Source: Planctomycetia bacterium TMED53 (GTDB lineage: Bacteria > Planctomycetota > UBA8108 > UBA1146). Taken from it: a stretch of 64,000 nt of DNA. How positions within the stretch are numbered: the stretch's first letter is position 1; each line of letters starts with the position of its first letter. Shown here piece after piece: positions 5,426 through 26,181 of this stretch. Position numbers and translations under genes: made by a program. The stretch is from contig NHDG01000067.1 in the NCBI GenBank assembly GCA_002167285.1, positions 88,153-152,152 of the forward strand, written 5' to 3'. Under the pieces are notes generated by a model that saw only the letters and a list, made by a program, of their open reading frames with translations, was not told the origin of the DNA and did no database searches.

Positions 5426-8400
5426 ATGTTCAAAAATCGATCATTTCTCGCTCTGACGGCGACCCAATTCCTCGGTGCGTTCAATGACAACATCTTCAAG
5501 CAGTTCATCCTTTTGATCGCGCTACAGATGAGTCTTGAATACCTACCTCTGGATGCCCAAGCGGTGGCGATGGGGATCTTTGCTTTTCCATTTGTCATGT
5601 TTGCCTGCCTGGGTGGGTCCATCGCCGACCGAGTCCCCAAACGCCGAGTGATCATCCTCGTCAAATTGAGTGAAATCTTCGTCATGATTCTTGGAATGGG
5701 TGCTTTCTTCCTCGCCAAATCTGATCCAGATCTGGGGATCATGGCGATGATGGGCGTTCTCTTCCTCATGGGAACCCAGAGTGCATTCTTCGGTCCGTCA
5801 AAATTTGGAATCATTCCAGAGACGGTCAGTGAATCGAATCTGACCCGAGCAAATGCCATCATCAGCATGACCTCGAACATCGCCATCATCCTTGGAACGA
5901 CATTCGCGGGATTGATGTTCCTCTTCCTCAATCCTGGAGGAGACCTGACCCAGGGTTACCCCAACTGGTACAGCGGCGTCATCTTCATCTTCATCGCGAT
6001 CATCGGCTGGATTTGTGCTCAAAAAATCAAATCCGGAGCAGAAGCGAGTGCACCCCATCGAAAACTGGAGTGGAACCCGATTCATGAGTTGCGTCACCTC
6101 GCGACCGACAAGCCTCTCCTTGGAGCAGTGATCTCCACCGGTTGGTTCTTCCTGATCGGTGCGCTCGCATTGGCCTCCCTCAATGTATGCGGTAAAGAAG
6201 TGTTGTCGTTAGGAGATGGGGGCTCCCGCCTCTTCTTCTTCGTCGCCGGCGGAATCGGCTTGGGCAGCCTATTAGCCAGTAAACTCTCGGGGGACAAGGT
6301 CGAGATCGGCATCGTTCCCGTAGGGGGAATTTTGATGACCGCCGGCTTTGCCCTGACCACCATCGTCGAAGAAACGCTGCTCGGTTACGGATCAACGCTG
6401 ACGATCGCCGGAATTGGCGGCGGCATGTTCTTGGTACCTCTTGTCGCATACATCCAAGAACGCTCCCGCGGAGAGGAGCGGGGGAAAATCCAAGGTGCCT
6501 CTGAATTCGTCACCTTTTCCTTCATCTTCATGTCCGCACTCGTATGGGACTTTTTCGTCAACACCAACATGCTCGCCCTGAGCCCGGAAGGCACTCTACT
6601 GGCGATCGCTGTGCTGGCATTGACGGGAACACTGGGTGTCTTCTTTGCCGTCCCCCACATCGCCGTGCGATTCCCGGTTTGGATCCTCGTACACACTCTC
6701 TATCGGATTCGAATCCTTGGTATGGAAAACGTTCCACGCCGCGGAGGAGCATTGCTGGTCGTCAATCACTTGTCCTACGCAGATCCATTCCTCGTCGGAG
6801 CCTCGATCCCTCGCTTTGTACATTTCCTTATGCATCGTCAATTCAAGGACATGGGGCTCATCGGTTGGGCAAGCCATCTGATGCGCGCGATACCGGTCTC
6901 CAGTGATGATGGCCCCCGTGCCATCATCCAGTCCTTAGAAAACGCAGCCGAGCACGCTCGCAATGGAAACATCGTCTGCATCTTCGCTGAGGGGGGGATT
7001 TCTAGAACCGGTAACTTACTGCCATTCTCGAAAGGCCTCGAAAAGATTGCCCGAAAAGCGGACGTTCCCATCATTCCGGTCTACCTCGATCGGGTCTGGG
7101 GCAGCATCTTTTCATTCCGCGGTAAAAAATTCTTCTTCAAACGTCCGCTGCGATTGCCATACCCGGTCACTGTCACCATCGGTGAGCCGATGGCTCCCGA
7201 TTCCACCGCCCGACAAGTCCGTTCGCGAGTGGAAGAGCTGAGTGCTCTCGCCCTCGATTCACGCAAACAAAAGGGAATCACCCTCGCCACCCGCTTCCTC
7301 ACGGTTGCTCGAAAATCTAGTGGCAGAACTGCGGTTATCGAAAAAGATCGCCGCCTCTCATTCCGCAAATTTCTAATTCTTGTGCTGCTCCTACGAAGGA
7401 AACTGCGCAAGCGATTAGAGGGACAACAGAATATCGGGGTGATTCTTCCCTCCGGAGTCGGCGGCGCTGCGATCAACATCGCTCTGACCGTCATGGGAAA
7501 AACGGTCAGTAATCTGAATTTCACCGCCGGCACAGCGTCGCTGAAATCTGCTTGTGAACAGTTAGAGCTAAAGACCATCATTTCAGCAAAGATGTTCACC
7601 AGCAAAATTGATATGGACATCTCAGAATTCGCGCCCGATGTCGAAGTCATCGACCTTCCCGCATTGCTGACACGCGAGGTCTCCACCGGGGACAAGATCA
7701 TGGCGATGCTCACAGCTTTACTGCCATCGACTTTCTTGCGCTCTCTGCCAGGAGTTCCCCAAGATCCAGATCAAGATGTTTCAATCATGTTCTCATCAGG
7801 ATCTACTGGCACGCCCAAGGGAGTGCGACTCTCACACCACAACATCCTTTCGAATGTGCGTAGTGTTTCACAAATCTTTGATGTCGATCACAAAGATCGG
7901 GTCGTCGGCTCTCTGCCCTTCTTCCATGTCTTTGGTTACACCATCACTCTTTGGTTCCCCCTTGGAAATGCGATCGGCGCCATCTATCACAATAATCCGA
8001 TGGACACCGACATCATCGCCGAGCTCACCAGAGATCACAAAGGCACGATCTTCCTGTCAACACCGACCTTCTACAGAACCTACCTGCGACGCTTCCAACC
8101 GGAAGATTTCCAATCGGTTCGGATCGCAGGTGCTGGAGCAGAGAAGCTGAAAGCGAGTCTTGCCGAAGCTTGGGAGGAGCGCTTCGGCTCACCACTCCTT
8201 GAAGGTTATGGCTGTACCGAACTGAGCCCGGTGGTATCGGTGAATCTTCCAGATATCGATGTACCCGGATTCCGTCACAAGACCCGCAAACTAGGAACCA
8301 TCGGGCTTCCAATTCCAGGTGTAGTCACCCGCGTCGTTGATCCAGAAACAGGAGAAGATCTCCCCCATGGGGAAGCAGGCCTACTTCTGATTAAAGGCCC

Positions 8401-8890
8401 CAGTGTGATGCAAGGATACCTGGGCAGGGATGACCTCACCGCAGAAGCGTTCGACGGAGAATGGTACAAGACCGGAGACATCGCCAAGGTCGACGAGGAT
8501 GGCTTCCTCGTCATCACCGACCGCTTGTCTCGATTCTCTAAACTCGGCGGCGAAATGGTCCCCCATGTGCTGATTGAAGAAGCCATCCAAGAAATCATCG
8601 ACGCTGCGATTCCCGATGAGGAGGAAACGGATGGCGAAGCGATGGTCGCTGTGACAGCAGTTCCCGATGAATCAAAAGGGGAAAAGCTCGTGGTCGTTCA
8701 TGGCGAACTCCCCATCGACCCTCCCGAAATCCTCGAAAGCTTGAGAACCCGTGGGGACTTGCCTAATCTCTGGCTGCCCCGAAAAGAAGCATTCGTGCCT
8801 GTCGCGGAGGTCCCACGCCTGGGATCAGGAAAACTGGATTTGAAAGCGGTCAAAAACCTGGCCCTCGATCACTTCGGAATCGGCGGTTGA
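5426..8890 (+). CDS. aas: Acyl-ACP synthetase / 2-acylglycerophosphoethanolamine acyltransferase fused to an LplT-like MFS domain
   Basis: N-terminal MFS (TQFLGAFNDN), PlsC motifs NHLSYAD and FAEGGISRTG, AMP-binding FSSGSTGTPKGV, EGYGCTE, YKTGD. Confidence 0.92.
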   Translation: MFKNRSFLALTATQFLGAFNDNIFKQFILLIALQMSLEYLPLDAQAVAMGIFAFPFVMFACLGGSIADRVPKRRVIILVKLSEIFVMILGMGAFFLAKSDPDLGIMAMMGVLFLMGTQSAFFGPSKFGIIPETVSESNLTRANAIISMTSNIAIILGTTFAGLMFLFLNPGGDLTQGYPNWYSGVIFIFIAIIGWICAQKIKSGAEASAPHRKLEWNPIHELRHLATDKPLLGAVISTGWFFLIGALALASLNVCGKEVLSLGDGGSRLFFFVAGGIGLGSLLASKLSGDKVEIGIVPVGGILMTAGFALTTIVEETLLGYGSTLTIAGIGGGMFLVPLVAYIQERSRGEERGKIQGASEFVTFSFIFMSALVWDFFVNTNMLALSPEGTLLAIAVLALTGTLGVFFAVPHIAVRFPVWILVHTLYRIRILGMENVPRRGGALLVVNHLSYADPFLVGASIPRFVHFLMHRQFKDMGLIGWASHLMRAIPVSSDDGPRAIIQSLENAAEHARNGNIVCIFAEGGISRTGNLLPFSKGLEKIARKADVPIIPVYLDRVWGSIFSFRGKKFFFKRPLRLPYPVTVTIGEPMAPDSTARQVRSRVEELSALALDSRKQKGITLATRFLTVARKSSGRTAVIEKDRRLSFRKFLILVLLLRRKLRKRLEGQQNIGVILPSGVGGAAINIALTVMGKTVSNLNFTAGTASLKSACEQLELKTIISAKMFTSKIDMDISEFAPDVEVIDLPALLTREVSTGDKIMAMLTALLPSTFLRSLPGVPQDPDQDVSIMFSSGSTGTPKGVRLSHHNILSNVRSVSQIFDVDHKDRVVGSLPFFHVFGYTITLWFPLGNAIGAIYHNNPMDTDIIAELTRDHKGTIFLSTPTFYRTYLRRFQPEDFQSVRIAGAGAEKLKASLAEAWEERFGSPLLEGYGCTELSPVVSVNLPDIDVPGFRHKTRKLGTIGLPIPGVVTRVVDPETGEDLPHGEAGLLLIKGPSVMQGYLGRDDLTAEAFDGEWYKTGDIAKVDEDGFLVITDRLSRFSKLGGEMVPHVLIEEAIQEIIDAAIPDEEETDGEAMVAVTAVPDESKGEKLVVVHGELPIDPPEILESLRTRGDLPNLWLPRKEAFVPVAEVPRLGSGKLDLKAVKNLALDHFGIGG

Positions 8891-15711: not shown

Positions 15712-16401
15712 GTGGGGCCGAAATTGATGATTCGAAACTCTGATCCAGAAGAGTTGGCAAAACGGTTGCGAGAGGATCTCCTCTCTTGCATGGCTGACGG
15801 CGACTTACTCTGCATCCCTACTGGTCGCTCTCCCCTGGAGCTCTATCAGCAAATCCGTGAAGACAGCGATAGCGCTGATCGTTGGCGTAGCTTTCGATAC
15901 CTACAACTGGACGAATATCTCGACCCGTCCGGATCGATTCATAGCTTTCGAGATGAATTGAGCCAGCAAATTTTCACCCCACTGCAAGTGCCAGCAGATC
16001 AGATTCATTCCATCGATCCCCAAGGTGACCCGGTTACCCAAGCAAAGAAACTCGATCAAATCTATGATCGATGGGGCCCCCCTAAAGCTTGCGTCCTTGG
16101 CCTTGGTTCCAATGGGCATATTGCATTCAACGAACCCGGCAGCTCATTTTCGGGTTACACCGTCGTCGACTTGGCACAGGAAACCATCGCAAACAATTTT
16201 CCTGAACCACAGCCGTCAAAGCTGCAAGCGCTGACAATCAGTCTCGAGCAGATTTACGCATCTCAACACGTATTCCTCCTCGTGCCTCAGCCAGAAAAAA
16301 GTTCTATCCTCGACCGCTGCCTGGCTGGCCCGAAGGATGTCAATATTCCTGCCTCCTGGCTTCACGATCACCCCAGCCTGCACGTCTATCGTCATCGATA
16401 G
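15712..16401 (+). CDS. nagB: Glucosamine-6-phosphate deaminase family protein
   Basis: PTGRSP, QLDEY, LGLGSNGHIAFNEPGS, PASWLHDH. Confidence 0.8.
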   Translation: MGPKLMIRNSDPEELAKRLREDLLSCMADGDLLCIPTGRSPLELYQQIREDSDSADRWRSFRYLQLDEYLDPSGSIHSFRDELSQQIFTPLQVPADQIHSIDPQGDPVTQAKKLDQIYDRWGPPKACVLGLGSNGHIAFNEPGSSFSGYTVVDLAQETIANNFPEPQPSKLQALTISLEQIYASQHVFLLVPQPEKSSILDRCLAGPKDVNIPASWLHDHPSLHVYRHR

Positions 16402-16420
16402 TCAACAGAAAGGCACCGTC

Positions 16421-19063
16421 ATGAATCTGCTGATCCTGTTTCTCATTGGTCTCGGGTTTCCGGCGTTGGCCGCTGATCCTCCCGTCGATCCGGTCGGAGG
16501 TGACGGCTCAAAAGGAAGCATGAAATTTGAGATCATAGACACCGATGGAGAAGCGGTTCCATCGCGGCTAACCTTCCGCAAAACTGATGGCACTCGACAA
16601 AAGTTTTTTAGTGAAACCCAAGTGCTCCCTAAAGACCTTGCGATTCGCGATGACGTTATTTGCACCCTCTCAGGGAGGGGACACATCACACTCCCGGTCG
16701 GTAAATGGGTGGTTTATGCCAGCCGTGGGCCAGAATGGAGTATCGATCGCCAAGAGGTTTCCATCTCAGCCGATACCATGACAGAGGTGACATTTCGCCT
16801 GGAGCAACAGATCGATTCAAGCGGTTGGGCCGCAGCAGACTATCATCTGCATACTTTGACCTACTCTGGTCACGGCGATAGCAACATGACTGAGCGCATC
16901 ATCAGTATCGCTAGTGAAGCTCTCGAAGTCGGGATCGCCACCGACCACAACCACCACACCGATTACTCTCCCACCATTTCGGAGTTATCAGCGGGGGAAC
17001 ACTTCCAGGGAATCGTTGGCAATGAGATTTCAGTGCCCCTCGGTCACTTCAATGCTTTTCCTCTGGAACCATGGGGAGAAGTAGTCGATGTCAATTCCTC
17101 CAATGGCCCCAGGATGTTCCGCGCTGTTCGCAAGATGGGGACCGAAGGTGGCGAAGTACCGGTGATCCAGGTCAATCACCCTCGCTGGGAAGCGATCGAT
17201 TACTTCCGAATCGCAGGCCTCGATCCCATCACTGGTAAATCCGCTGATCATGATTGGTCCCTCGATTTTGACAGCGTCGAGATCTTCAATGAAAACCCAG
17301 GTTGGGGTTACTACGATGCGGAGACGACTGACAGAAATGTCGGAACCAGTCGCCACTCTGTTCTCGAAGACTGGCATAACCTCCTCAATCATGGCGCCCG
17401 CATCACTGCAGTCGGCAATTCCGATAGTCACACCGTCAATGTCAACCTGGCCGGCTGGCCGCGAAATTACTTTCCCGTCTCTAATGACCAACCGGGGCAA
17501 ATCCCTGTCAAAGAAATCTGTGACACCGTCAAAAATGGTCAAGTTTTCACTACCTACGGCCCCTTTATAAAGTTTTCAGTCAATGGCAAAGGGATGGGTG
17601 AAACGGTCAAAGCGGAGAGAGCAGCAGTTCGTCTGAGTGTCGAGGTTTACGCAGCGGATTGGATCGATGTCGATCGAGTCCTCGTCGTCGTCGATGGAGA
17701 TGTGGTCGAAACGATCCCTGTTCCAGAGACTCGAGAGATTCTCCGACTCAAGGATGAGCGAAAGATACCGGTACGGACTGACGGCTGGATCGCCATTCGT
17801 GTGGAGGGTGATGACAGTCTCGCCCCGATCGTGCCCGACAAGGATCGGCCCATTCTCCCCATCGCGATGACGAACCCCATCTACGTCGATGTCGATGGAG
17901 ATGGTCGTGTCACCGCGCCAGTGGAAGTCGCGCGTAACTGGCTCGAAAACCATAAAGGTGACTCCATGCACCTCCATGCAGAGTGGCAAGCGAGACAACC
18001 CCATCAAAGAGTCGCGATGCTCCACGCCTGCACCGATGATTCAGAAACGGTTCGAACTCTTTTGAAATGGGGACTGCAAGATCCCTCACGGCTCGTCTGG
18101 CTCGCTGCTTGTCGAACCATGGAGGAGCTGGAACTTAGAAACGATGCAGACTTGACCGCTGAGTTACTGAAAAAGTATTCGCTAGAGGGTCTCGATCACT
18201 GGGCACTCTCAGTCATCTTAAAGGCGATGCCCCCTGAAGAAAGTGGCCCCCGCATCGCTGAACTCCTTGGTCGCAAAGGTAAGAACGCTTTAGGAATTCA
18301 TACCAGACAGGTGATTTCACTTCTTCCCGGACACTTTGTCCGTCGTGTGTTCATCTCTGAACCATTCCCGGGGGGTGGCAAGGAAGGTATCGAAGGAGTC
18401 CTCGCGCTTCCTGCTCAAGAACGTCAAACCACAAGAGTCCTCCTCTCCACTGAAGAAGGGCCTTTTGATCTTCAGCAGTATGGAGAAGAGCGTGGACGTT
18501 CAGAGGATTGCGTATTCCTGATGCGCTGTGTTTTGATCAGCCCCGGCGATCGTCAAGTAAACCTTGCCGCCGGCTCCGATGATGGTTGCCTCATACAAGT
18601 GAACGGAGTCACCGTCGTCGAGGATTTTTCTGAGCAAGGCGTCGATCCACTCGATCACTTGATTCAGGTTCCGCTGAAAAAAGGAACCAATGAAATCCTC
18701 TTCTTCGTCGAAAATGGTGGCGGAAATTCAGGAGCTTCTCTGAGGGTTCTCGATGAAAAAGTCGTCGTTCAGTCTGCTGAAAAAAGCAGTCTGAAGCCTT
18801 CCATCTCCCCTCGAGACAAAGTGGTTTCAGATCTCGCCGCACTCCATGCCGCGGCAACGATCTTCTTTCTGGATCGTAACGAATGGCCAGCAGCGGTCTC
18901 TGACCTCGTCGATGCAAAATTGATTCAATCGATAACCACGGATCCCTGGGGTGGGGAATATCAGATCATTCAAAGTGGCAACAAAGTAGAAGTGCTGTGC
19001 CTGGGAGCAGACGGATCAGAGGGCGGCATCGGCTTGGAAGCCGATGTTCGATACTCCCCCTAG
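16421..19063 (+). CDS. Exported CehA/McbA-type (PHP-like) metallohydrolase with helical region, PA14-like module and C-terminal GspG-like domain
   Basis: Signal peptide; DYHLHT, ATDHN, GNEIS..GHFN, NHPR, GNSDSH; GSDDG...VPLKKGTNEI; DPWG...LGADGSEGG...ADV. Confidence 0.85.
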   Translation: MNLLILFLIGLGFPALAADPPVDPVGGDGSKGSMKFEIIDTDGEAVPSRLTFRKTDGTRQKFFSETQVLPKDLAIRDDVICTLSGRGHITLPVGKWVVYASRGPEWSIDRQEVSISADTMTEVTFRLEQQIDSSGWAAADYHLHTLTYSGHGDSNMTERIISIASEALEVGIATDHNHHTDYSPTISELSAGEHFQGIVGNEISVPLGHFNAFPLEPWGEVVDVNSSNGPRMFRAVRKMGTEGGEVPVIQVNHPRWEAIDYFRIAGLDPITGKSADHDWSLDFDSVEIFNENPGWGYYDAETTDRNVGTSRHSVLEDWHNLLNHGARITAVGNSDSHTVNVNLAGWPRNYFPVSNDQPGQIPVKEICDTVKNGQVFTTYGPFIKFSVNGKGMGETVKAERAAVRLSVEVYAADWIDVDRVLVVVDGDVVETIPVPETREILRLKDERKIPVRTDGWIAIRVEGDDSLAPIVPDKDRPILPIAMTNPIYVDVDGDGRVTAPVEVARNWLENHKGDSMHLHAEWQARQPHQRVAMLHACTDDSETVRTLLKWGLQDPSRLVWLAACRTMEELELRNDADLTAELLKKYSLEGLDHWALSVILKAMPPEESGPRIAELLGRKGKNALGIHTRQVISLLPGHFVRRVFISEPFPGGGKEGIEGVLALPAQERQTTRVLLSTEEGPFDLQQYGEERGRSEDCVFLMRCVLISPGDRQVNLAAGSDDGCLIQVNGVTVVEDFSEQGVDPLDHLIQVPLKKGTNEILFFVENGGGNSGASLRVLDEKVVVQSAEKSSLKPSISPRDKVVSDLAALHAAATIFFLDRNEWPAAVSDLVDAKLIQSITTDPWGGEYQIIQSGNKVEVLCLGADGSEGGIGLEADVRYSP

Positions 19064-21003
19064 GAGAGTTCCGCCAACTTTTCATGATTCACTTCCCTGC
19101 GATCCTCTCGACGTCGGGTCCACCCCTGCTTGTCGAGGTGCTCCAGCAAGGGGATGGCAAATTTCCGAGTCGTTCCCAAGAGGTCCTTCGCTTCCGATGC
19201 ACTGAAGGGCCCTGAAGTTTCATGGTGGGCAGCTAGGCGCCTGACCGCTTCAAGAATCGCTTCTTCCAAGAGAACGACATCAGGGGTCAATCGCACCAAC
19301 TCACCCCGATCGACCAATAGAGATTGAAGTTTGCTAAGGAGAGCTTCGGTGGTTCCGAACTCCGGTGCCAAATCCTCATTTCGCCCAGCTTCAAATAGGT
19401 TTCCTGCCAGATAGTTACGGTACTTCTCCAGCACTGCTCTTTCAGCTTCCGGAATAGGCGGTTCAAAATCTGGAATAGAAAGCCTTCCACCACGCAATCT
19501 ATCAAGACGGCCCTCTGCGACCAAACTTTCATAAACCGCTTCAAGAAAACCATCTTCGAGTCGAAGTGCATCGCGAATTTCAAGGGCCTTCACCGATACA
19601 CGATAAGGGTCTTGGCGGAATACTGTCTCGATGGCACCGGTGATACGCTCACCTGCCATTCTCATTCCCTCTTGAACCAACCAACGACCACCTTGCAAAG
19701 AAGTGACCTCACCAGCTGAAGCGAGTTCTTCAAGATACTCGGCAACCTGCTCCTGGGTGACGGTCATACGACGTGACAATTCTTCGGTCGTGTGAATCTC
19801 CAGTAATGCATCCTGAAGAAGACTGCGTAAATAATCTTGTGGGCTGTCGAGTGCTGTCATCTTTCGCCGTACCGATTCGACGACAAAATCTTTACCGGTC
19901 TTCAGGCGCCAGCGAGAACGGTCGAGAATTTCTCCACCACCCAGGGTGATCATCGGCGAAGTTTGACGCAGGACGAAGCGATCACCAGGAGCGACGACGA
20001 CCGGCTCCTCCAGCCGAATCTGTGCCACCGCCTCTTCCCCCGGTTCCAAACTGGTGCAATCGAGCAGGTACAGGCGCCCGACCGCTTCTGTCGTGCCCTG
20101 CAAAAACCGAATCGGCATTCGATGGGTTAACGGTTGAGACAAACCTGACAGGGACCGCAAGCTGACTTCGAGCATCTCGGTTGCGGTAAAATAGCCCGGT
20201 GTTGCAGCCACCATTCCTCGACTCAGGTCCTTATAATTGACATCCGCCAAGTTAATCGCTGTCGAATGACCGGCACGTGCACGATCCACTGTTACTTTGT
20301 AGGCTTGCAAGCCGCGAACCCTACCTTGATGTTCGCCAGGAAGAATCTCCAATCGATCATCCTTGGCTACAGCTCCACTTACAGGAACACCGGTGATGAC
20401 TGTCCCGTGCCCCTTCGAGGAAAAAACCCTCTGGATCGGTAAGCGAAAAACACCTTCCGTATCCCGAGATGGCAATTCGCCAATGATGCCGATGACTTCA
20501 TCACGTAATGCGTCGATCCCATCGCCGGTCTCAGCACTCACCCTGAGCATAGGAGCATCCTCGAGGAAGGTCCCTTGCACCGTTTCACGAATTTCTTCCT
20601 CGACCAACTCCAGCATCTCGCTATCGACTAAGTCGATCTTATTGATGGCGATCACTCCGCGCTCAACTCCGAGGAGGGTCATGATGGCGAGGTGCTCCAA
20701 AGTTTGAGGCATCACTGAATCGTCTGCGGCAACCACCAAAACGACTAAATCGATGCCGCTGGCCCCAGCGACCATGTTGCGGATAAATTTTTCGTGGCCA
20801 GGAACATCGATGATCCCTACCAGCTCACCCCCCGGCAGCTTCATCGGCGCAAAACCAAGATCGATGGTCAATCCGCGATCTTTCTCCTCAGGGAGCCGAT
20901 CTGGGTCAATCCCCGTCAAACGGCGCACTAAAGACGACTTTCCATGGTCGATATGTCCGGCGGTGCCGACAACGACACCGAAAATGCTGTCTTCTGTGGC
21001 CAA
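19060..21003 (-). CDS. selB: Selenocysteine-specific translation elongation factor
   Basis: GTAGHIDHGKS, RLPEEKDRGLTIDLGFA, DVPGHEKF, C-terminal winged helix TRKFAIPLLEHLD; start likely TTG 21003. Confidence 0.96.
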   Translation of the reverse strand: MATEDSIFGVVVGTAGHIDHGKSSLVRRLTGIDPDRLPEEKDRGLTIDLGFAPMKLPGGELVGIIDVPGHEKFIRNMVAGASGIDLVVLVVAADDSVMPQTLEHLAIMTLLGVERGVIAINKIDLVDSEMLELVEEEIRETVQGTFLEDAPMLRVSAETGDGIDALRDEVIGIIGELPSRDTEGVFRLPIQRVFSSKGHGTVITGVPVSGAVAKDDRLEILPGEHQGRVRGLQAYKVTVDRARAGHSTAINLADVNYKDLSRGMVAATPGYFTATEMLEVSLRSLSGLSQPLTHRMPIRFLQGTTEAVGRLYLLDCTSLEPGEEAVAQIRLEEPVVVAPGDRFVLRQTSPMITLGGGEILDRSRWRLKTGKDFVVESVRRKMTALDSPQDYLRSLLQDALLEIHTTEELSRRMTVTQEQVAEYLEELASAGEVTSLQGGRWLVQEGMRMAGERITGAIETVFRQDPYRVSVKALEIRDALRLEDGFLEAVYESLVAEGRLDRLRGGRLSIPDFEPPIPEAERAVLEKYRNYLAGNLFEAGRNEDLAPEFGTTEALLSKLQSLLVDRGELVRLTPDVVLLEEAILEAVRRLAAHHETSGPFSASEAKDLLGTTRKFAIPLLEHLDKQGWTRRREDRREVNHEKLAELS

Positions 21004-21095
21004 ATGGGTCCTCCGGAACCGGTTCAACAATTTCATGGCAGAACTCAAGTTCTGCTCCCTTGACGATAACCGAGTTTTGTTCCAGCATCATTGCC

Positions 21096-23532: not shown

Positions 23533-26181
23533 ATGCGGCTCAACACAATGTGCATCCGCCTGTGCCTCACCGCCCTGATTCTCCTTCTGGTCTCACCCAT
23601 CGGCTGGGCCCACGATCCATTTGACGAGATTCCCCCACCCTTCTTGGTCGTCGACAAACTCGAGCGGGAAGACCCTTTCCGCCAACTGGATGATGTTTTA
23701 CCGACCCCCAATGAGTCGCGACTCGGTTCCGGTGCACCGGGACCTGGATACTGGCAACAAAAGGTCGATATGGAAATCGACGTAACTCTCGATGCCGTAA
23801 ACCATCAACTCGATGGTCATGAGAAGGTGACCTACCACAATAATTCACCCCACACTCTGACCTACCTTTGGATGCAACTGGATCAGAATCGCTTCCGCGA
23901 AGATTCGATTGGAAATCGCTCAAGAGCGACAGACCCCAACGACGAACAAAGCATTCGCTGGCTGAGACGCCTCGCTTTCCAGCAACAGTTCGAGGGCGGT
24001 TTTCAAATTGAATCGATCGTCGATACTGCAGGAAACGCTGTTCCCTTTATCATCAACGACACTCTCTTGAGAATTGATCTCCCCAAGCCATTGGCTCCGG
24101 GAGAAACCTTCACCTATTCCTTGAAGTGGCAGCACAATATCGTCAACGCCAAAGTCCTTCGCGCCCGTGGAGGTTACGAATGGTTTGAAGATGCGGGTAA
24201 TGCCATCTACGAGATGGCGCAGTGGTTTCCGCGCATGTGCGCCTACACCGATTACGCCGGATGGCAAAACAAACAATTCATCGGCAGTGGTGAGTTCACA
24301 TTGGAGTTCGGTGATTACCTCGTCAATATCACCGTGCCCGACACCTTTGTCGTCACTGCAACCGGGGAACTGACCAACTCTGACGAGGTCATGACCGAAA
24401 CACAAATGAAGCGCCTCAAGGAATCGGAGACTGCGGCGAAACCGATGTTTGTCATCACGCCGGAGGAGGCCCTCGCCAATGAAGAGAAGGAAGCCACCGG
24501 CACGCGTACTTGGAGATTTGACGCCAAGAATGTTCGCGACTTCGCCTGGGCAGCCTCCCCAAAGTTCATCTGGGACTCTCTTGGAGTCGAGGTTCCCGGT
24601 GGTGAACTCACGATGGCGATGTCCTTCTACCCCAATGAAGGCGAGCCTCTGTGGAGTAAATACTCAACCCATGCCATCGCCCACACTCTCGAGGTCTTCT
24701 CTGAGATGTGTACTCCCTACCCCTACCCCGTCGCCATCAGTGTGAATGGTCCTGTCGGTGGCATGGAATACCCGATGATCTGCTTCAACGGCCCGCGCCC
24801 GGAGAAGGACGGCACCTACTCTGAACGAACAAAGTACGGCCTGATCGGCGTCATCATCCACGAAGTCGGACACAACTGGTTCCCGATGATCATCAACTCG
24901 GATGAGCGTCAGTGGACGTGGATGGATGAGGGACTCAACACCTTTGTACAATTCGTCACTCAACTCTCGTGGGAAGAGAAATACCCTTCTCGCCGTGGTG
25001 AAGCACGCAACATCACCGGTTTCATGACCAGCCCGAATCAGATGCCGATCATGACCAATAGCGAGCAACTGATTCAGTTCGGCAACAACGCCTATGCCAA
25101 GCCCGCCACCGCCCTCAATATCCTGCGCGAGAGTGTCATGGGCCGTGAACTCTTCGATTTCGCGTTCCGTGAATACTGCAAACGTTGGGAATTCCGTCGC
25201 CCCGAGCCCGCAGACCTCTTCCGTACCCTTGAAGATGCCAGCGGCATGGATCTGGATTGGTTCTGGCGCGGTTGGTTCTACACCACCGATCACGCGGATC
25301 TCGCCATCGAGAGTGTCGTTCGTTACCACATGGACAGCGGCAATCCGGATGTCGAGAAGCCCCTCCAAAAAGAGGAGCGCGACAGCGATCCAGAGTGGAT
25401 CAGCCGAACCAACAACAAGGATATTCCATTCCGTAGCGATCGCTTCCCGGAGCTGCTCGACTTCTACAATAGCTTCGATGAACTCGATGTCACCGCTGAG
25501 GATCGCCGTGGTTACGAAGCCTTCCTCGCACGACTCGATGCCGGTGATGAAGAACTCCTCAATCGGGATTGGAACTTCACCGTCATTCGCTTGCGGAACT
25601 ACGGAGGTCTAGTGATGCCAGTTCCAGTACGCATCACCTACTCCAGTGGAAAAACTGAAGAGCAGCACCTTCCCGCTGAATTGTGGCGCTCCAATCCGCG
25701 GGTGATTTCACGTCTTCTCGTCACTCCAGAACCGGTGGTCAAGGTCGAGATCGACCCCAACCTGGAAATCGCCGATGGAGATCGCAGCAACAACACCTAT
25801 CCTCAAGAGATCGACCAAAAACGCTTCCGAATTCGTCCTGATTCCGATCGATCAAACCCGATGCAACGCTCCCGTGATGAAAGATTGCTGAAAGAAGCAG
25901 AGCTGGCTGCAGGAAGGTTGGGTCAAGAGATCGCCAAGCGCATCGCCTCCAACACCGTGGGAACCCCAGTGCCAGCAGCTTCTGGAATCATCTCTGAGTT
26001 ACGCCAAGACTTCTTCAATGATCCCTTCGGATCTGAGTTCTCCGTCTTCGATTTCGAAGGTGAAGAAGGCATCGCCCGCATCTATTCGGTCGGGCCCGAT
26101 GGCGATCCTGGAACCGCTGACGATTTGACGTGGATTGTTCGTAAGGATGGTCACATCGATTGGTGGATCTCCGAAAAATAA
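23533..26181 (+). CDS. Exported M1 family aminopeptidase with C-terminal GspG-like extension
   Basis: Signal peptide; GGMEYP, HEVGHNWF...WMDEG; C-terminal DPFG...IYSVGPDGDPGTADDL. Confidence 0.92.
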   Translation: MRLNTMCIRLCLTALILLLVSPIGWAHDPFDEIPPPFLVVDKLEREDPFRQLDDVLPTPNESRLGSGAPGPGYWQQKVDMEIDVTLDAVNHQLDGHEKVTYHNNSPHTLTYLWMQLDQNRFREDSIGNRSRATDPNDEQSIRWLRRLAFQQQFEGGFQIESIVDTAGNAVPFIINDTLLRIDLPKPLAPGETFTYSLKWQHNIVNAKVLRARGGYEWFEDAGNAIYEMAQWFPRMCAYTDYAGWQNKQFIGSGEFTLEFGDYLVNITVPDTFVVTATGELTNSDEVMTETQMKRLKESETAAKPMFVITPEEALANEEKEATGTRTWRFDAKNVRDFAWAASPKFIWDSLGVEVPGGELTMAMSFYPNEGEPLWSKYSTHAIAHTLEVFSEMCTPYPYPVAISVNGPVGGMEYPMICFNGPRPEKDGTYSERTKYGLIGVIIHEVGHNWFPMIINSDERQWTWMDEGLNTFVQFVTQLSWEEKYPSRRGEARNITGFMTSPNQMPIMTNSEQLIQFGNNAYAKPATALNILRESVMGRELFDFAFREYCKRWEFRRPEPADLFRTLEDASGMDLDWFWRGWFYTTDHADLAIESVVRYHMDSGNPDVEKPLQKEERDSDPEWISRTNNKDIPFRSDRFPELLDFYNSFDELDVTAEDRRGYEAFLARLDAGDEELLNRDWNFTVIRLRNYGGLVMPVPVRITYSSGKTEEQHLPAELWRSNPRVISRLLVTPEPVVKVEIDPNLEIADGDRSNNTYPQEIDQKRFRIRPDSDRSNPMQRSRDERLLKEAELAAGRLGQEIAKRIASNTVGTPVPAASGIISELRQDFFNDPFGSEFSVFDFEGEEGIARIYSVGPDGDPGTADDLTWIVRKDGHIDWWISEK

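Follow-up and report, generated by a model that had tools for sequence, protein, structure and literature searches.

The globular head of the major pseudopilins GspG, EpsG, and PulG (PF08334; PDB: 3gn9, 3fu1, 4lw9, 1t92, and 5wda) has an alpha1C helix, a DPWG motif, and the loop LGADGxEGGxGxxAD with two aspartates. In the modular type IV pilins, an N-terminal pilin module with a class III signal peptide and a hydrophobic alpha1N helix is built into the filament, and a functional module is grafted onto it at the C terminus. Here, we describe a gene from Planctomycetia bacterium TMED53 that joins a pseudopilin head to an enzyme in the opposite order. The gene occupies 16418..19063 (+) of a 64,000-nucleotide stretch of contig NHDG01000067.1 (hereafter, the window), and its 881-amino-acid (aa) product is a multidomain hydrolase, probably exported, that ends in a GspG-type head. 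Like the modular type IV pilins, it holds a pilin-fold domain and a functional module in one polypeptide, but the enzyme is N-terminal, export is apparently through the Sec pathway, and the pilin part lacks the features needed for assembly.

The tail of the protein shares the fold, helix, and motifs of GspG, EpsG, and PulG, is 31%–32% identical to EpsG over 98 aligned columns, and is comparable to the N-terminally truncated soluble constructs that were crystallized. It differs from them in having neither a class III signal peptide nor a prepilin-peptidase site nor alpha1N, in a shorter alpha-beta loop, and in its position at the end of an 800-aa enzyme outside any gsp operon. The enzyme body, in turn, is common. 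CehA/McbA family forms of approximately 800 aa from Planctomycetota and Phycisphaerae are 37%–42% identical to it over 83%–88% of the query, with the same order of beta-sandwich, PHP, helical, and PA14-like regions, but these relatives end directly past the PA14-like module and the tail is restricted to one clade.

Proteins that join pilin subunits without a pilin N terminus have been described. TcpF reportedly associates with the toxin-coregulated pilus (PMC9565799) and PilY1/PilC with the tips formed by minor pilins (PMC13533445). The fusion may work alike, with secretion or display as the outcome, but TcpF and PilY1/PilC reportedly dock by short signals or beta-strand addition and not by a pilin head of their own.

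Results

The hydrolase and its tail form one conserved gene

A sequence-only reading of the window had proposed that a GspG globular domain follows about 800 aa of enzyme in frame, with no intervening stop. The open frame does run uninterrupted from 16337 to 19063 (+; 908 codons, 0 internal stops), and the fusion is genuine and conserved, not an assembly artifact. In a protein search, 1,116 of 7,999 scored candidates reached E < 0.001, and 16 of the 120 best homologs listed carry the tail: 15 with a precomputed PF08334 hit, and P0005 with 23.7 bits. These 16 proteins derive from ENA, NCBI, JGI, and Logan assemblies and are 46%–100% identical to the query. The other 104 listed homologs (37%–50% identity, mostly approximately 800 aa) stop right after the PA14-like module.

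The same architecture recurs in related genomes. At E ≤ 1.7e-18, 22 of 28 genomes of this family (genera g1, g4, g5, and g6) have the tail, mostly in open frames of 884–978 aa; of the exceptions, two are cut off at a contig start and one is interrupted by an N-gap. The remaining six family genomes (g2, g3, g7, and two of g6; 88%–95% completeness) gave no match at that threshold, and neither did any of 33 genomes of other families, where the matches are mainly canonical GspG genes of 145–160 aa. The same gene with the same neighbors is present in 21 named records, nearly all of them Planctomycetota or Planctomycetia metagenome-assembled genomes (MAGs) from marine samples. L080, titled "Bacillota bacterium isolate MAG 7," has the fused gene beside Planctomycetota-type neighbors, and its title probably reflects a mislabeled bin.

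Contigs assembled from public runs of different studies cover 18666–19400 (X1) and 18630–18988 (X6) with zero differences, and X2 contigs cover 18300–18803 and 18775–19027. No indel, joint, or loose end was reported across the junction in the public-run contigs. The sequence-only reading had called for a check of coverage across 18780–18830, and contigs from other runs show no indel, stop, or joint there. Neither outcome that this reading had named as refuting, a missing T2SSG hit or a stop or frameshift that separates a stand-alone gspG, was thus observed. One of the runs is possibly that of the source sample, so the independent genomes carry more weight.

The genome assembly is fragmented (125 contigs, 83% complete), as would suit an artifact of this one MAG, whereby misassembly, a sequencing frameshift, or a lost stop codon had merged the hydrolase gene with a separate gspG-like gene. 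Such an artifact can nevertheless be dismissed for practical purposes: the architecture is shared by 22 of 28 genomes in the family, 16 protein clusters drawn from four repositories, and 21 named MAG records; the public-run contigs cross the junction without an indel; and no prepilin leader lies between the domains.

Candidates for a stand-alone tail did not hold up. The short frames in G012 (139 aa) and in G020 and G021 (222–257 aa) proved to be N-gap or contig-start truncations. In P0124 (156 aa), a start that by eye resembles a sodium:neurotransmitter symporter runs straight into the PA14-like end and the tail; this is probably a chimera created by assembly or gene calling in a short contig. 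A word-based search for longer tail carriers, too insensitive for a census, returned four proteins only (the protein itself, two orthologs, and the contig-end fragment P0121).

The tail is a complete but minimal GspG-type head

The Pfam family T2SSG (PF08334; gathering cut-off, 21 bits) matches the whole protein at 27.2 bits (E = 4.1e-6) and its last 107 aa at 33.8 bits, with an alignment that covers profile positions 60–106 of 108 only. A hidden Markov model (HMM) of 11 orthologous tails aligns with the canonical GspG of the same genome over positions 4–83 of 85. The match begins at approximately mature residue 34 of that GspG, shortly past its hydrophobic helix. A phmmer search of PDB sequences returned eight major-pseudopilin entries (EpsG, PulG, XcpT, and GspG; E = 4.3e-10 to 2.5e-6).

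Structure prediction agrees with these matches. The AlphaFold2 model of the last 99 aa (predicted local distance difference test [pLDDT], 82; predicted template-modeling score [pTM], 0.71; first 10 residues disordered) has the fold of a pseudopilin head, a long helix on a small beta-sheet with a C-terminal loop. The best Foldseek matches to the model are EpsG (3gn9, 4lw9, and 3fu1) and PulG (1t92), all with probability 1.00, template-modeling scores of 0.67–0.69, and identities of 26%–32%. A look-alike search of the tail in the ESM Atlas gave T2SSG clusters only (0.87–0.90).

The sequence-only reading quoted the tail from 18812, and that start is exact; we delimit the domain as 18806..19060 (+), the last 85 residues (797–881), comprising an alpha1C helix, a short loop, DPWG, a beta-sheet, and the calcium-loop motif LGADGSEGGIGLEAD. 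Twenty columns are invariant in 13 aligned tails that are 39%–73% identical to that of the window. Among them are the motifs that the earlier reading had named, present in 13 of 13 tails: DPW, the next Y, and LGADG..GG.G..D with both aspartates. In the phmmer alignment, the two aspartates align with the EpsG loop. The corresponding D117 and D125 are the main calcium ligands in PulG/OutG, where the calcium site governs pilin stability (PMC13081927). The tail is shorter than the genome's own GspG by approximately 9–10 residues in the alpha-beta loop. It is thus a complete but minimal GspG-type head; its description as near-complete was fair.

What precedes the head is not what precedes GspG. Neither a G/FTLxE prepilin-peptidase site nor a hydrophobic helix was found before the tail, in the frame or in the ortholog alignment, so the prepilin leader and helix are, as first proposed, the parts that are missing. 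The GspG equivalog model TIGR01710 gives the whole protein 27.7 bits and the tail 34.9 bits, both below its cut-off of 88.85. The genome's real GspG sits in a gspF-G-H-I cluster on another contig and has both the prepilin motif and the hydrophobic helix; a canonical GspG with class III signal and alpha1N was likewise recovered from all 17 other family genomes fetched. Because signal, helix, score, and operon context all set it apart, the tail belongs to the T2SSG domain family and not to the GspG pseudopilin family. With no prepilin-peptidase site and no hydrophobic alpha1N, the head therefore cannot be processed or polymerized as a pseudopilin.

These features also bear on whether the protein might be a true pseudopilin with a giant pro-region, in which the 800-aa enzyme is cleaved off and the head enters the filament. 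The order of the domains would suit such a precursor and is all that speaks for it, but the stretch from the PA14-like module to the head contains neither a G/F-T-L-x-E site nor a hydrophobic helix, the first tail position corresponds to approximately mature residue 34 of the GspG in this genome, and the TIGR01710 score is 27.7 bits against a cut-off of 88.85. We give this explanation next to no credence.

The body is a CehA/McbA-type PHP hydrolase

The part of the protein ahead of the tail had been read as a PHP enzyme, a helical region, and a PA14-like module, and profile, model, and structure matches all bear out that order. NCBIfam NF038032 (CehA/McbA family metallohydrolase; cut-off, 80 bits) matches residues 163–518 of the 908-aa frame with 161.8 bits (E = 2.5e-47), and Pfam PHP falls below its cut-off (13.7 versus 26.4 bits). 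A full-length AlphaFold2 model from 65 homologs (mean pLDDT, 91.5; pTM, 0.83) shows, in order, a beta-sandwich, a PHP-type barrel, helices, a second beta-sandwich, a stretch of low confidence, and the tail. Foldseek matched the model to the PHP phosphoesterases 3e38 and 2anu and to the PA14 sugar-binding domains 6m8m, 6x8a, and 6x7x, each with probability 1.00. A sequence search for solved structures gave no match to the enzyme body.

The features lie in the following order on the forward strand of the window. A probable Sec signal peptide (MNLLILFLIGLGFPALA/A; 16418..16471), a hydrophobic N terminus ending in ALA, was judged by eye, and the N termini of orthologs are alike. An N-terminal beta-sandwich with approximate limits follows at 16505..16798 (strands in residues 32–127 of the full-length model; pLDDT > 90). 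Next come the CehA/McbA-type PHP metallohydrolase domain (16823..17890) and a helical, HEAT-like region (17918..18310; model residues 501–631), at the corresponding place of which homologs have Pfam HEAT_2. The PA14-like beta-sandwich, again with approximate limits, spans 18344..18772 (strands in model residues 643–785), and Pfam PA14 is found in homolog P0041 at residues 717–791. A linker at 18773..18805, with pLDDT < 50 at model residues 788–794, connects this module to the tail and differs in length and sequence among orthologs. The last 85 codons are followed by the stop codon at 19061–19063.

The body is thus a PHP hydrolase of the CehA/McbA type by profile and predicted structure, with a predicted metallo(phospho)hydrolase activity. 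Many H, D, N, and E columns are invariant across the 65 homologs. Among the enzyme's relatives, other accessory modules are found (CBM9, alpha-amylase, and PI-PLC), which, together with the PA14-like module, suggests that the substrate may be glycan-linked. With the neighboring sugar-phosphate gene also taken into account, glycan-linked phosphoesters are candidate substrates. Public annotation already names these proteins CehA/McbA family metallohydrolases, and the protein collection searched has PF08334 on record for 15 of them.

The fusion arose once and the tail is under purifying selection

A maximum-likelihood tree of the enzyme part (65 rows, tail columns removed, unconstrained) placed all 16 tail-bearing rows in one clade with a Shimodaira-Hasegawa-like approximate likelihood ratio test (SH-aLRT) support of 99. 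The sister group is tail-less. P0005 was missed by the motif label used on the tree and confirmed as tail-bearing by Pfam. One clade of carriers with a tail-less sister means that the fusion was gained a single time, at the root of a group of uncultured marine Planctomycetota.

For four pairs with unsaturated synonymous divergence (dS), Nei-Gojobori ratios of nonsynonymous to synonymous substitution (dN/dS) were 0.08–0.22 over the 85 tail codons and 0.02–0.08 over 489 upstream codons. The tail is under purifying selection, approximately three times weaker than that on the enzyme body. In two close pairs, L012/L013 and L012/L014, dS itself is approximately 3-fold higher in the tail (0.23–0.30) than upstream (0.08), which may be noise from 85 codons or recombination confined to the tail.

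Pilin-less heads recur in other architectures

The fusion is not as singular as the sequence-only reading suggested, since GspG heads without a prepilin motif are common elsewhere, in other architectures. When 1.84 billion representative proteins were searched with a profile of 13 tails, 4,493 matched at E ≤ 0.001. By simple regular expressions, which misfiled some fragments and atypical prepilins (e.g., P0158), the 150 best matches divide into 48 in which a prepilin motif closely precedes the domain, 51 long (≥250 aa) or multi-copy proteins without one, 10 short lipobox proteins, 29 other short proteins with another hydrophobic or an unclear N terminus, and 12 fragments. Pfam placed T2SSG above cut-off in 21 of 22 long motif-less representatives. 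Several pilin-motif-less T2SSG proteins outscore the genome's own GspG against the tail profile.

The best matches after the orthologs, among the 1.84 billion representatives, are tandem-head proteins. Pfam finds a Sec-type N terminus followed by three or four tandem T2SSG heads in P0122, P0123, P0126, P0128, and P0136. The same layout without a prepilin motif is seen in 390–500 aa for P0122, P0123, P0126–P0130, P0132, P0134, and P0136. Elsewhere, the head accompanies a beta-lactamase (P0139, two heads), a BlaR1 Peptidase_M56 domain (P0160), or HEAT repeats (P0214, several heads), and one or two C-terminal heads end the large, family-unassigned proteins P0187, P0217, P0232, and P0268. Lipobox forms include P0153 and P0156. 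Genomes of the same taxonomic class as the window's encode DUF4340 with T2SSG (L040 and L045), T2SSG with DUF7710 (L041), large proteins with a C-terminal head (L043, 1,416 aa; L046, 700 aa), and an anti-sigma zf-HC2 protein with a weak T2SSG match (L047). Proteins such as P0122, P0123, P0139, P0153, P0156, P0160, L040, and L045 share the head without a prepilin leader and differ from the fusion in partners and copy number.

Some further records contain a T2SSG head in the middle of 440–550-aa frames from Phycisphaerae (L102:2254–3912, L117:2539–3867, and L134:2239–3747); the C-terminal parts in L102 and L134 give sub-threshold TraB/PrgY/GumN matches. Other candidates were dropped: L042, L049, and L050 are ordinary prepilins inside long spurious frames, and L090 and L101 are canonical prepilins.

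The fusion is therefore one instance of a broader group of pseudopilin heads without a pilin N terminus, and the group itself appears to be undescribed. No description of pilin-less T2SSG fusions was found in literature titles and abstracts, a search that did not extend to subscription journals and supplements, and no described function for pilin-motif-less T2SSG proteins was found in those titles and abstracts.

A second head-like tail in the same genome

A more diverged GspG-like tail forms the C terminus of an M1 metallopeptidase encoded 4.5 kb downstream of the hydrolase gene (23533–26181; tail, 25894..26178, +). It contains DPFG and, further on, SVGPDGDPGTADD. Pfam Peptidase_M1 matches the gene with E = 2.7e-14, and T2SSG reaches 15.5 bits, below the cut-off of 21. 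When compared with the hydrolase tails by hhalign, the M1 tail aligned with a probability of 68% (E = 4.6e-5), and, with an HMM of the M1 tail, the hydrolase tail came second out of 29,365 frames in the genome (E = 0.0027). Of 18 other family genomes searched, 13 have strong matches to the M1 tail (E ≤ 3.8e-16) in long open frames, and 3 more have weak ones (E = 5.6e-6 to 0.0013), also in long frames. In genus g1, the two tailed genes lie approximately 7 kb apart on the same contig.

On another contig (G000:C94:14655–16727; L053:756–2828, +), a POT/PTR2 peptide transporter (Pfam E = 1e-84) has an insert of approximately 200 aa between its transmembrane parts, with the M1-tail-like motif YSDGPDGVAETEDDAWIV. 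It was not established as a third head carrier (T2SSG, 13.7 bits, E = 0.127; M1-tail HMM, E = 0.25); if the match were true, the same head-like module would be present in both a peptidase and a peptide transporter. Two prepilin-type proteins of 200–265 aa, L004 (G000:C88) and L005 (G000:C43), have GFTLVE and GFTLIE leaders and a C-terminal "WS.GPDG...DD..W" motif that is closer to the M1 tail than to GspG.

Gene start and neighborhood

The favored start of the fusion gene is ATG 16418, 16 nucleotides past the stop codon of the upstream gene (16399–16401). This placement follows from the end of that gene at 16401 and from the purine-rich stretch, gaaagg, that precedes the ATG; P0001, the twin of the fusion protein in the public database, has 880 aa. 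The upstream gene (15712..16401, +) belongs to the Glucosamine_iso family (Pfam PF01182, E = 2.3e-17; 6-phosphogluconolactonase/glucosamine-6-phosphate deaminase type). Downstream, a convergent SelB gene (19060..21048, −; Pfam GTP_EFTU, SelB-wing_3, and Beta-barrel_SelB) overlaps the stop codon of the fusion gene with its end. Across 22 related loci, Glucosamine_iso lies upstream in 18, three of the four misses being contig-start truncations, and SelB lies downstream and convergent in 21; the 22nd locus, L090, is a canonical prepilin.

Elsewhere in the window, a single frame of 1,154 aa at 5426–8890 (+) joins MFS_1, Acyltransferase, and AMP-binding domains, that is, a transporter, an acyltransferase, and an acyl-activating enzyme, which we take to be a fusion of the LplT-Aas type.

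Discussion

The fusion brings known domains together in an undescribed arrangement, and the role of its head is our inference. We lean slightly toward a multidomain hydrolase whose minimal GspG head, of single origin, would act as a calcium-stabilized, non-polymerizing docking or binding module. This view draws on the behavior of the same head as a mobile accessory domain, which appears on unrelated exported enzymes, on the outer portions of membrane sensors, in lipobox proteins, and in tandem arrays. In the hydrolase, the head is tethered by a linker with pLDDT < 50 within an otherwise confident model. It might hold the exported enzyme in place within the cell envelope, either on a pilin-type filament or on another envelope ligand. 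The accessory modules of the enzyme's relatives would play such a positioning role, and the same head apparently does likewise in exported proteins, lipoproteins, and membrane sensors.

Several points weigh against this view. No computation here yields a binding partner or ligand for the tail, and its calcium binding is predicted solely from conservation of the motif. Sec export of the enzyme is probable, with the signal peptide judged by eye. The approximately 3-fold faster evolution of the tail fits a surface that adapts to a partner and fits equally a loosely constrained appendage. The analogy with the binding modules of relatives is loose in position because those modules are mostly N-terminal (CBM9 and PI-PLC), and the classes that document the head's mobility come from the simple rules described above. 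Lastly, this genome has two clear head cases and perhaps a third, a number too small to suggest a general sorting tag.

A special case of the docking idea is that the tail serves as a secretion handle: it would dock on the endopilus, at its major or minor pseudopilins, or on the assembly platform of the cell's own type II secretion system (T2SS), and the piston, once loaded with the folded enzyme, would then drive it through the secretin. The head is indeed of the GspG type and not of a generic type IV pilin type, and every one of its best PDB matches is a major pseudopilin. A canonical gspF-G-H-I cluster is present in the genome, each of the 17 other family genomes fetched yielded a canonical GspG, and non-pilin riders of pilin complexes are known, namely TcpF (PMC9565799) and PilY1/PilC (PMC13533445). 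Yet no T2SS gene lies near the fusion gene within the 64-kb window, and the same head occurs in inner-membrane sensors, tandem arrays, and lipobox proteins, which the status of secretion substrate would leave unexplained. Moreover, the alpha3-beta1 loop, reported as the determinant of secretion specificity in major pseudopilins (PMC13081927), is largely deleted in the tail. We consider a secretion handle unlikely.

Two further comparisons do not move this estimate. By our own mapping, from the EpsG alignment and PMC13081927, the tail has H and T at the presumed equivalents of EpsG E44 and D48, positions that vary among tails, and Q and S at those of R87 and R88, just before DPWG. The genome's own GspG has D44 and K48 and so also departs from the proteobacterial pattern, which makes the comparison of salt-bridge residues uninformative about compatibility with the pseudopilus. 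A complex prediction for the tail with the soluble domain of the genome's GspG scored 0.03 against a mark of 0.32, without controls, and counts neither way. The endopilus is the most interesting of the possible partners, but nothing here supports endopilus docking specifically.

The head could instead be a stabilizing cap, a compact calcium-binding fold captured once that stabilizes or solubilizes the C terminus of the enzyme with no external partner. Its invariant positions are those of the fold core and the calcium loop, and its surface positions vary; the tail is under weaker selection than the enzyme; and calcium governs the stability of the domain in PulG (PMC13081927). A packed cap, however, would not be expected on a flexible, low-confidence linker, and the recurrence of the head on unrelated enzymes, sensors, lipobox proteins, and arrays points to a function of its own. 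We consider a cap alone unlikely as well, and a docking or binding module is the role that we provisionally retain.

To our knowledge, how the T2SS recognizes folded substrates is a long-standing open question, with no common signal known. An exported enzyme with a tethered pseudopilin head, a small autonomous domain, would be an obvious candidate for a built-in adaptor that links it to the secretion piston or to pilin filaments. The broadest form of this idea, that pilin-less GspG heads are widespread, unrecognized docking tags for the T2SS endopilus or type IV filaments in Planctomycetota and other phyla, seems to us quite improbable. If it were true, the hydrolase and the nearby M1 peptidase would each carry a piece of the piston as their own secretion or display signal, and a secretion system that lacks a known substrate signal would gain a defined, transferable recognition module. 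The finding would be of high significance only if the head proved to be such a docking tag for secretion machinery.

The consequences for annotation are more immediate. Because, by the simple rules used here, only 48 of the 150 best tail matches have a prepilin motif, a T2SSG domain cannot be read as the marker of a pseudopilin. This affects the annotation of secretion systems in Planctomycetota and other phyla even if the head is only an envelope-binding or stabilizing module, and it indicates that periplasmic, lipoprotein, and tandem "pilin-head" proteins make up a family that is so far unstudied.

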